Assembly (NCBI GenBank): GCA_944325235.1
Contig: CALUZE010000001.1
Location: forward strand, 1 to 42,163
Length of the DNA: 42,163 bases
Origin: an uncultured Elusimicrobiales bacterium
GTDB taxonomy: Bacteria; Elusimicrobiota; Elusimicrobia; Elusimicrobiales; Elusimicrobiaceae
Direction of reading: 5' to 3'
Translations under genes and position numbers: made by a program
Shown: positions 5,676-42,032 of the stretch, piece after piece
How positions within the stretch are numbered: the first letter of the stretch is position 1
How the letters are laid out: each line of letters opens with the position of its first letter
The notes under the pieces: model-generated
Told to the model about the DNA's origin: nothing
The model's database searches: none
Seen by the model: only the letters and a program-made list of their open reading frames with translations

Positions 5676-5753
5676 GTGGCAATCTCCTTTATTACAATGG
5701 TAAAACGTCCCCTATATTATAATAAAAATCCGGCGTAAGTTAACTTTTATTCT

Positions 5754-5819
5754 GGGCCTTTTGTCCCCAGGAAAGAGGGTCTTTTGGCCCTGGTTGCTCA
5801 AATGACATTTTTTTATACT
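5754..5819 (+). promoter_or_regulatory. Tandem GGGYCTTTTGKCCC boxes plus -10 element (TATACT)
   Basis: Boxes at 5754-5767 and 5777-5790; -10 at 5814-5819, 7 nt before ATG 5827; same layout recurs at 41990-42032. Confidence 0.6.
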
Positions 5820-5826
5820 TTTATAT

Positions 5827-7044
5827 ATGAAAGGATTAAAACGTTTGTTCATGGGTTTTTTGTTGGTGGCTGTGCTCGGTTCGGCCCTTCCGGCTGCGCC
5901 GTTAACCCCTTTTTTGGCTCAAGTTTCCAAAAGTGTTCGTCGCTCGGCGCTCGTCCGGCAAAACCCGGGCATGAACCGAATGCGCTGGATGCGGTTTTAT
6001 TTCCCGAGCACGACGGTGGCTCAGAAGGACGGCGTGTGGGAAAAACTCTACCACGCGTTTAATTCCAAAGACGAGCAGCGCGCGGTGGCGTTTTATCTGT
6101 ATCAGATGTACATTTCCGCCGCGGCTTACGGACAAATGCCCGGCAGGTATTTGACGATTAACCAGTTGGGCGTATTGGACGGACTGGAAAAGTTGACGAC
6201 TCCGTTTGATGTACGCAATGTACAGGAATTTTACGAAGACCATAAGCCGGAAATCAAAGCCTGGCTGAAACAATTTTTTAACAAAATCGGGCAAACCTCC
6301 TACCGCACCGACGACCCGCGCAACGACGCGACCGAACGGCAATTTTTGCAAATTTTGGCCAACAGTGCAGACGCCCGCGGCCGGGCCTGTTATCTGGTGG
6401 AAACCCCGAAATGGAAATCCGCCCTGCGCAAGCAGGACGCCGCCTGGCTGGCCCAGGTGCTGCGCGGCACCGAACGGGAAATCGGCCGAAAAGTAGCCCT
6501 GTACAAAATGCCGAAAAGCAGTTTAGCCGCGCTTGATAAACGCGTCGGCAGGATGGTGGGTGGGCAGATGTCCTATTTATTCCGCCCCGCCGGGCAGGAG
6601 TGTGCCGCCCGGGCTTATTTAACGGGCAGCGGGCTCTGCCGGCAAATGAAAAGCCAACCCGCCCAGGGACGGCAGATTTCGCGCGTGTATCAGCTGCATT
6701 TAAGCCCCACCGATAACGAATTTTTAAAGCCGGCCCGCGGGAACCGGTTCCGTGCCCCGAACGGAAAAGTATATCCGAATTGGTACTATCACGAGGCTAT
6801 TTTGGTAGTGCTGCAGCACGCCAACCAATACACGCCCGTGGTGTTGGATAAATTTTTGTCCGACAAACCGATTGTGCTGGAAAAATGGCTGACCTATTTT
6901 AACCCGAGAATGACGATTATTTACGCTTCGCCTTTCCAACGCTGGGAGGAAACGGAAAATACCCTGGTTCTCCCGGACAAGACCGGCCCAAAAGGCATTT
7001 TGAAAGACGGCCGGCTGTATCGCCCGTACCCGGTGGGAAAATAA
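5827..7044 (+). CDS. Secreted protein with C-terminal protein-glutaminase-like (Cys-His-Asp) domain
   Basis: Signal peptide; ECAARAY...WYYHEAILV...VLDKFLSDKPI...W resembles protein-glutamine glutaminase motifs. Confidence 0.65.
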   Translation: MKGLKRLFMGFLLVAVLGSALPAAPLTPFLAQVSKSVRRSALVRQNPGMNRMRWMRFYFPSTTVAQKDGVWEKLYHAFNSKDEQRAVAFYLYQMYISAAAYGQMPGRYLTINQLGVLDGLEKLTTPFDVRNVQEFYEDHKPEIKAWLKQFFNKIGQTSYRTDDPRNDATERQFLQILANSADARGRACYLVETPKWKSALRKQDAAWLAQVLRGTEREIGRKVALYKMPKSSLAALDKRVGRMVGGQMSYLFRPAGQECAARAYLTGSGLCRQMKSQPAQGRQISRVYQLHLSPTDNEFLKPARGNRFRAPNGKVYPNWYYHEAILVVLQHANQYTPVVLDKFLSDKPIVLEKWLTYFNPRMTIIYASPFQRWEETENTLVLPDKTGPKGILKDGRLYRPYPVGK

Positions 7045-26343: not shown

Positions 26344-27774
26344 TTATTTTCCGTCGTTCAAGGCCAGTTCTTCGCGGATGTTTTGGATATCGCTTTGCGT
26401 TTGGTTAATCAATTTTTGCAAACGCGCTTTGCGCGCCGCCACAAAGGACCACGCCGCCATATATTCCGGCATATCGTGGGCGGCGTCCCGGGGATTTTTG
26501 GCCTGTTTGTCTACCAGCTTTTTCATGTGGTTCAGCTGATATTGGGCGTTTATCAATTGCTGCAAGCGGGTATTCAGCACATTCAGGCGGGCCTGCAACG
26601 TGCGGATGCGTTTGTTTTGCGCGTCAAACAAGAACATACCGACCGAACTTTTCCTTTTCATATCTCCGTTAGGCCAGATGACTTGTTTGTGATTGCGGAC
26701 CCAGGTTAATTTATTTAATATTTTTTGGGAAGTTTCATCTTTTAAGGAATTATTTAGCAGCCACAAGGCGGCCTTCGGTTCCAAGTACGTTGCGGCGCTC
26801 AGCACGGCTTGGGCTTTTTTGGCCGGCAGATAGACGGATGTTTGCATAAACAATTCAAAATCGTTTTCCGACCAGGAGCCGCTCTTAATCAATTGATTTA
26901 ACAGGCGTCTTTGCACGGTGTAGGCATATTGGCGCAGCGAATCGTTGGCTTGGGGCAGGGCGCCGGCGTCGTAGGAAACGGAGGGAATTTCGTTAAATAC
27001 ATACATATATAATTGGACGAAGTTATGCGACAGGACGGACGCGGCTTCGTCAATCAGCATAATAAACGTTTGTTTTTGCTCGGTGGATAGCGTTTTTTCC
27101 TGCAGGATAAAGTCGTACACGTCCGACATGGATTTTTCGGGCTGTTCGGTCAGTTTTTCCATGACTTCTTGGGAAATATAATGCGGGTCGCCGGGATTTT
27201 CGGAAAGTTTTACAGGCGTTACGCGTACCTGGTCCCAATTAGGCGTCCCCCAGGAAAAAGACGGCTTTTTGCCTTTTAAAATTTGTTCCCACATCTGGCG
27301 GGATACCGTTTGCGATTGCAGCATTTTGTTGGCGTCCCACTTCAGCATTTTGGAGGGGATATCCGGCCGCGGCTTTTCGGCAAGGATTTTGCCCAATACG
27401 CGGCTTTCGTGCTGCAAAATTTGGTTGAGTTGCTGGCGGTAAAGTTCTTTGTCTTTCAAGGGCGCGTTGACCGCGGGCTGTTGGGGCAGGGGCAGGCCCA
27501 GCATTTTTAAATGGGCGGCCGTGGTGGTAAAATCTTGGGAAACGACCCAGCCCGGGTTTTGGTATAGGGCGCGGCGGACTTCTTCTATAGCGCTGTAGCG
27601 GTTGCGCAGGGCCTGTATTTGTACGGAGGATAAACTGTTAGAGGCAAAATTTCCAGGTGCCGTAAAGGAAGATTTCAATAATTGGTTTAAGCTTTGGGTG
27701 GGCATTTGGGCCGCCGCGGTGCCGGCTGCCAATAAACAACCCAGCAACAGGCCCAAACAAGAAAAATTTTTCAT
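26344..27774 (-). CDS. Hypothetical secreted protein with C-terminal coiled coil
   Basis: 476 aa; signal peptide ending AAA-Q; AAGGAG RBS; no recognisable family. Confidence 0.78.
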   Translation of the reverse strand: MKNFSCLGLLLGCLLAAGTAAAQMPTQSLNQLLKSSFTAPGNFASNSLSSVQIQALRNRYSAIEEVRRALYQNPGWVVSQDFTTTAAHLKMLGLPLPQQPAVNAPLKDKELYRQQLNQILQHESRVLGKILAEKPRPDIPSKMLKWDANKMLQSQTVSRQMWEQILKGKKPSFSWGTPNWDQVRVTPVKLSENPGDPHYISQEVMEKLTEQPEKSMSDVYDFILQEKTLSTEQKQTFIMLIDEAASVLSHNFVQLYMYVFNEIPSVSYDAGALPQANDSLRQYAYTVQRRLLNQLIKSGSWSENDFELFMQTSVYLPAKKAQAVLSAATYLEPKAALWLLNNSLKDETSQKILNKLTWVRNHKQVIWPNGDMKRKSSVGMFLFDAQNKRIRTLQARLNVLNTRLQQLINAQYQLNHMKKLVDKQAKNPRDAAHDMPEYMAAWSFVAARKARLQKLINQTQSDIQNIREELALNDGK

Positions 27775-27833
27775 ACGCGCTCCTTATGAATGTTCCTTAA
27801 TAATAGCATAGAAAAGCTATTCCGTCCAGACAA

Positions 27834-27894
27834 GGGGCTTTGGACCCAGAACAAGGCGGGACTTTTTGCCCGCGGCGTCTAGGCCTTTTTGGCC
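27834..27894. promoter_or_regulatory. Three degenerate GGGNC-N4-GNCCC boxes in a divergent intergenic region
   Basis: GGGGCTTTGGACCC (27834), GGGACTTTTTGCCC (27858), AGGCCTTTTTGGCC (27881); period 24/23 bp. Confidence 0.5.
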
Positions 27895-41915: not shown

Positions 41916-41989
41916 ATATCTTATTCTAACAAAATATCACTCGGCCGAGTAAGCCCAATTGTGCAGAGCCGCCGGGCCTACCCCCGGTT

Positions 41990-42032
41990 GGGCCTTTTGG
42001 CCCTGGTATCCTGTGCCCAAGGTCGCTATAAT
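41990..42032 (+). promoter_or_regulatory. GGGCCTTTTGGCCC box plus -10 element (TATAAT)
   Basis: Box at 41990-42003, -10 at 42027-42032, ATG at 42039; same 23-nt gap as at 5777-5819. Confidence 0.6.

Follow-up and report, generated by a model that had tools for sequence, protein, structure and literature searches.

A predicted exported protein of the protein-glutaminase domain family, with a fused helical domain, in gut Elusimicrobiaceae

What might a gut bacterium of the Elusimicrobiaceae do with a protein that joins a signal-peptide-like start, a large helical domain and a Cys-His-Asp triad? The question is raised by the gene for P0001, which lies on the forward strand of the 42,163-nucleotide stretch of DNA analysed here (the window) and occurs as a single copy in its source genome (G000, 84% complete). 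Protein-glutaminases (PGs), which are used in the food industry, convert the glutamine of proteins to glutamate, and with a probability of roughly 0.55 we read P0001 as a Sec-exported enzyme of the PG family that deamidates protein glutamine to glutamate and ammonia, its fused helical domain bracing the enzyme and likely aiding substrate choice. The features of the gene are the following.

5827..7044, + strand: P0001 gene, 405 amino acids (aa), from the open reading frame (ORF) translation
5827..5895, + strand: predicted Sec/SPase I signal peptide, residues 1 to ~23, without a lipobox Cys (sequence, heuristic scans)
5902..6423, + strand: all-helical N-terminal domain, residues 26-199, with no close relative among the solved structures and libraries searched
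6424..7041, + strand: PG-fold catalytic domain, residues 200-405
6526..6564, + strand: low-confidence loop, residues 234-246 (predicted local distance difference test, pLDDT, <50), with D237, conserved in 44/49 homologues, just ahead of the nucleophile helix
6601..6603, + strand: Cys259, predicted nucleophile (PG Cys156), in 49/49 and 66/66 homologues, aligned to the PG-type Cys
6790..6792, + strand: His322 (PG His197), in 49/49 homologues, W-x-Y-H aligned to PG
6847..6849, + strand: Asp341 (PG Asp217), in 49/49 homologues, aligned to PG IIDPSL

The catalytic domain is a member of an already known family. Gln_deamidase_2 (PF18626), the model that the initial annotation had proposed as a check, was the sole Pfam family above cut-off for P0001 (residues 249-356, E 4e-7, 30.6 bits against a cut-off of 25), and it was also matched by 63 of 66 family members. 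The domain has the PG fold, and in alignments its triad is in register with PG Cys156/His197/Asp217 (numbering from PMC4214742). The ORF and the codons of Cys259, His322 and Asp341, starting at 6601, 6790 and 6847, are as first annotated; the motifs ECAARAY, NWYYHEAILV and VLDKFLSDKPIVLEKW are all found in P0001, and the PG motifs named at the time (C-Y-A-R-A-H, W-x-Y-H-V-A and I-D-P-S-L) are seen in the PDB alignments. The proposal of a PG-type Cys-His-Asp papain-fold enzyme, which the annotation had tied to conservation of the triad, is borne out, the triad being invariant in all 49 genomic homologues, including those with as little as 20% identity in the catalytic domain; in the predicted structure, block pLDDT around the three residues is 85-86. 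The nucleophile motif is E-C-x4-Y, with residue 258 being Glu in 60 of the 66 members and Asp in 5, and Y264 kept in 61. None of the 66 has Gly before Cys. P0001 lacks the canonical motif G-C-Y-A-R-A-H and is placed in the PF18626 domain family, not among the canonical PGs (EC 3.5.1.44, Chryseobacterium type).

The same fold could in principle carry another chemistry, P0001 being a periplasmic or surface cysteine protease (LapG-like), a transglutaminase or an acyltransferase that acts on one partner protein. We consider this quite unlikely: Gln_deamidase_2 alone exceeds its cut-off, and PG-specific features are retained, namely the Arg six residues ahead of Cys (47/49), W-x-Y-H-x-A and D-x-x-L...P...W. 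PF06035 (LapG / C93 peptidases) gave no match to P0001, nor was any LapD- or LapA-like family found among the 35 window proteins scanned.

As a deamidase, P0001 would first be exported by Sec, the helical domain remaining attached to the catalytic domain. The N-terminus is basic, then hydrophobic, with an A-x-A-like site near residue 23, which agrees with the signal peptide first annotated, and a similar start is common to 48 of the 49 homologues, these calls coming from a hydrophobicity heuristic and not from a trained predictor. The mature protein is basic (isoelectric point 9.9; over 9 in 37/49 homologues). By analogy with PG, Cys259 would attack the amide of the Gln side chain, His322 and Asp341 serving as base and relay; once ammonia has left, water would hydrolyse the thioester; loop 234-246 is a possible lid or substrate-binding loop. 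The targets would be proteins at or beyond the cell surface, whether of host, diet or neighbouring cell, and the purpose may be nutritional, through the release of ammonia and by rendering protein easier for co-regulated peptidases to use, or alternatively action on a partner cell.

The N-terminal region, annotated at first as ~230 unrecognised residues, is indeed present but spans only ~175 aa (26-199), as residues from ~200 onwards align to mature PG. It is all-helical in a confident model, and of the earlier phrase "novel pro- or targeting domain" the novelty stands, the domain being unlike anything in the libraries searched, whereas the pro-domain is weakened. A pre-pro-enzyme, in which this region would be an unrelated, inhibitory pro-domain and a PG-like deamidase would become active once a secreted protease had cut it off, would fit the order of signal, domain and catalytic domain, and the accessible text of PMC13139226 describes characterised PGs as produced in the form of inactive pro-proteins. 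Two trypsin-like proteins (below the Pfam cut-off) stand under the same promoter motif as P0001, and the low-confidence segments of the model, 57-80 and 234-246, could reach the active site. Yet in the predicted interface residues 111-122 and 186-197 of the N-terminal domain, G115, L117, D118 and Y189 among them, pack on residues 363-377 along the edge of the catalytic sheet, and no triad or pocket residue is listed there. The domain is also longer than the PG pro-region (114 aa in the accessible part of PMC6132073). Its conservation looks equal to that of the catalytic half, and close relatives show the stronger constraint on it (ratio of nonsynonymous to synonymous substitution rates, dN/dS, 0.13-0.19 versus 0.27-0.39); its match is absent from 3 of the 49 homologues, which have a signal peptide and catalytic domain. 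We therefore regard a removable pro-domain as unlikely; the domain is predicted to brace the enzyme and not to block its active site, and likely helps substrate choice. Because no catalytic residue is listed in the modelled interface, full-length mature P0001 is likely active without pro-peptide cleavage.

The claim that the protein is an orphan had to be abandoned. An initial search gave 9 proteins, the window's own among them, and a family profile of 9 sequences matched 85 cluster representatives (50% identity) among 1.84 billion at E up to 0.001, six of the weakest being canonical-type PG-domain proteins. Applied to 401 genomes of the phylum, it matched 49, that is, the source genome and 48 of 118 others of its own family (by genus, 36 of 77, 11 of 30 and 1 of 4), and none of the 282 genomes in other families. 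The family may reach beyond the Elusimicrobiaceae, with P0057, P0071, P0076, P0077, P0080, P0085 and P0087 as distant full-length members, and a distant homologue occurs in the named species Elusimicrobium simillimum (WP_423971167.1, annotated as a hypothetical protein). The Pfam model alone added one genome, G380, whose protein was excluded from the counts for want of a match to the family profile at E 0.01; it (L055) is a different PF18626 protein in a 330-aa frame, with a signal peptide and without the helical domain, from another family of the order.

The P0001 gene is monocistronic, divergent from an H+-pyrophosphatase gene and convergent on a POTRA/BamA-like gene, and the pyrophosphatase gene adjoins the homologue in 29 of 48 loci. 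The gene is accessory, because in all five near-complete genomes that lack it the slot beside the pyrophosphatase gene is fully assembled, yet neither the gene nor the motif lies in it. In gene-less genomes (L110-L114) the slot contains, with names given by eye, a pilin-like protein (G050), ankyrin-like membrane proteins (G033, G052) and convergent ferritin-like genes (G036, G046). The P0001 gene changes faster than its neighbours (81% identity versus 85-100%), and its dN/dS against relatives is 0.23-0.30 in five of six comparisons, one being saturated, versus 0.00-0.17 for neighbour genes; other close homologue pairs gave 0.07-0.19 (10 of 11, one saturated). These values indicate purifying selection, and positive selection is not proven.

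The promoter elements ahead of the gene, and further copies of their motif, are these.

5753..5770, + strand: distal copy of a palindromic motif (RGGNC-N4-GNCCY), lying 23 nt further upstream than the proximal one, from sequence
5776..5793, + strand: proximal copy, abutting a weak -35 (5791-5796), putative regulator site, from sequence
5814..5819, + strand: -10 hexamer, separated from the -35 by 17 nt and from the ATG by 7 nt, from sequence
27831-27848, - strand, and 41989-42006, + strand: further motif sites in the window

The gene was rightly placed under a shared promoter motif: a palindrome that touches a weak -35, with a -10 box (TAnnnT) following after a spacer of 17 nt, precedes 41 of the 49 homologues, 13 of these 41 with a second upstream copy. 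The centre of the proximal palindrome lies ~43 nt ahead of the ATG, a position at which class II activators bind, and since the ATG follows within 8 nt in 33 of the 41 promoters, the transcript is predicted to be leaderless. When trained on 37 sites of homologues, without that of the window, a matrix found 68 sites in G000, 29 of them with a correctly spaced -10, against 25-32 sites in each of three shuffles (0, 0 and 0 with a -10). Of 121 family genomes, 118 contain a fixed pattern, in up to 45 copies (reversed control 0-3). A callable ORF follows 26 of the 29 sites, and 22 of these 26 begin with a signal-peptide-like stretch. Most of the 27 motif-controlled proteins scanned had no family above cut-off, hits being to M20 peptidase, trypsin-like, receiver, SpoIID, ankyrin, zinc-ribbon and ChaN-like families. 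We infer that the motif-linked exported proteins form one regulon, which would serve to act on proteins at the cell surface or outside it (those of a host, the diet or a neighbouring cell) and of which the P0001 gene is one optional member, as the motif also occurs in genomes without it.

This family-wide motif, which precedes ~30 exported proteins per genome, is possibly of more interest than the P0001 gene alone. In the window it also stands before a 476-aa signal-peptide protein (26344-27774, - strand; predicted mature start Gln) for which Pfam and NCBIfam gave no match. Elsewhere it precedes two tandem exported paralogues, 30% identical (L101:103-993 and L101:1094-1975), with a Y-R-G motif that we take to be reminiscent of ADP-ribosyltransferase folds; neither matched Pfam, NCBIfam or PDB. 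Several exported proteins under the motif (L096, L097, L100 and L109) appear ChaN/Tiki-like by eye (sole weak Pfam match L096, E 4e-4), and two signal-peptide proteins (L092:130-1245, L099:99-1484) have a response-regulator receiver domain at their end, which is unusual among exported proteins. G000 has ~27 type IV pilin-like genes, counted by eye, and two secretin genes (L117, L118) whose surroundings read as Tad-like and type IV pilus/type II-like, so that a route across the outer membrane may exist.

Glutamine is the predicted mature N-terminus, often followed by a basic stretch, in 15 of the 27 motif-controlled proteins and in 31 of 204 other G000 candidates, a heuristic contrast inflated by pilins, lipoproteins and false calls among the 204; together the two features may be a sorting signal. 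Such Gln starts could suggest that P0001 is an NTAQ1-like bacterial N-terminal glutamine amidohydrolase maturing the co-regulated exported proteins. We find this improbable. P0001 did not match PF09764 (NTAQ1) at E up to 10, although HMMER filters drop weak matches, and the exported set does not need the P0001 gene, because five near-complete genomes without it carry 10-25 motif promoters.

A more ambitious version of the deamidase reading is tentative and rather unlikely: P0001 would be a pro-peptide-free, target-selective Gln deamidase whose helical domain has a new fold and recognises one particular protein of eukaryotic or microbial origin. It would belong to a group of about 30 exported enzymes under common regulation, protease-like, ChaN-like and possibly ADP-ribosyltransferase-like, with which gut Elusimicrobiaceae would act against or on a host cell, for instance a protist of the gut. 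According to PMC4664238, Elusimicrobia are commoner in Entamoeba-positive people (0.10 versus 0.03%, q 2e-5), with no tie to the P0001 gene itself, and the accessible text of a survey (PMC10318531) groups PF18626 with deamidase/transglutaminase families that are often virulence factors, again with no tie of this gene to a host. If true, this version would offer a first molecular entry point to how small gut Elusimicrobiaceae live and to their reported association with Entamoeba.

Even apart from that, P0001 marks a family-wide promoter motif and exported protein set in gut bacteria whose way of life is poorly understood, and the question is testable because Elusimicrobium simillimum encodes a homologue. 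Few PGs are characterised, and those described in PMC13139226 come from Bacteroidota; their pro-peptide has to be removed, which makes food-enzyme production more laborious in practice. A divergent clade of ~80 sequence clusters, in which the active-site motif is changed and a pro-peptide is probably absent, would widen the PG toolbox, and its specificity may differ; the N-terminal domain is a good structure target, being confidently modelled without a close solved relative. We found no publication joining "Elusimicrobi" and "protein-glutaminase", nor the helical-domain fusion, the nucleophile motif change or the lineage in print, in a search that left out most subscription journals and all supplements, where PG-mining sequence lists might lie.

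Among the closest known systems, the papain-fold effectors and surface enzymes SpvD (5lq7), SseI (4g29), Ceg10 (9b8d), OspI (3w30) and LapG (4fgo) have no sequence-level match to P0001; they are injected or LapD-controlled proteins, whereas P0001 has a Sec-type signal, and its gut lineage has no known pathogens. Human NTAQ1 (3c9q, 4w79; PF09764) shares 8% identity and acts in the eukaryotic N-end rule as an enzyme of one domain; P0001 has a signal peptide and an extra domain. The third group is made up of the PGs of Chryseobacterium proteolyticum (2zk9, 3a54) and Flavobacterium sp. 316 (8z3i), Bacteroides helcogenes PGB and PF18626 itself. P0001 comes from a different phylum and is 16% identical to PG over the structural alignment, with E-C-x4-Y in place of G-C-Y-A-R-A-H and a Cys-His spacing of 63 versus 41; the His-Asp spacing, 19 versus 20, is similar, as initially annotated (PG numbering from PMC4214742). 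Both have a signal peptide (heuristic for P0001), and where PG has a cleaved pro-region, P0001 has a helical domain predicted to lie away from the active site.
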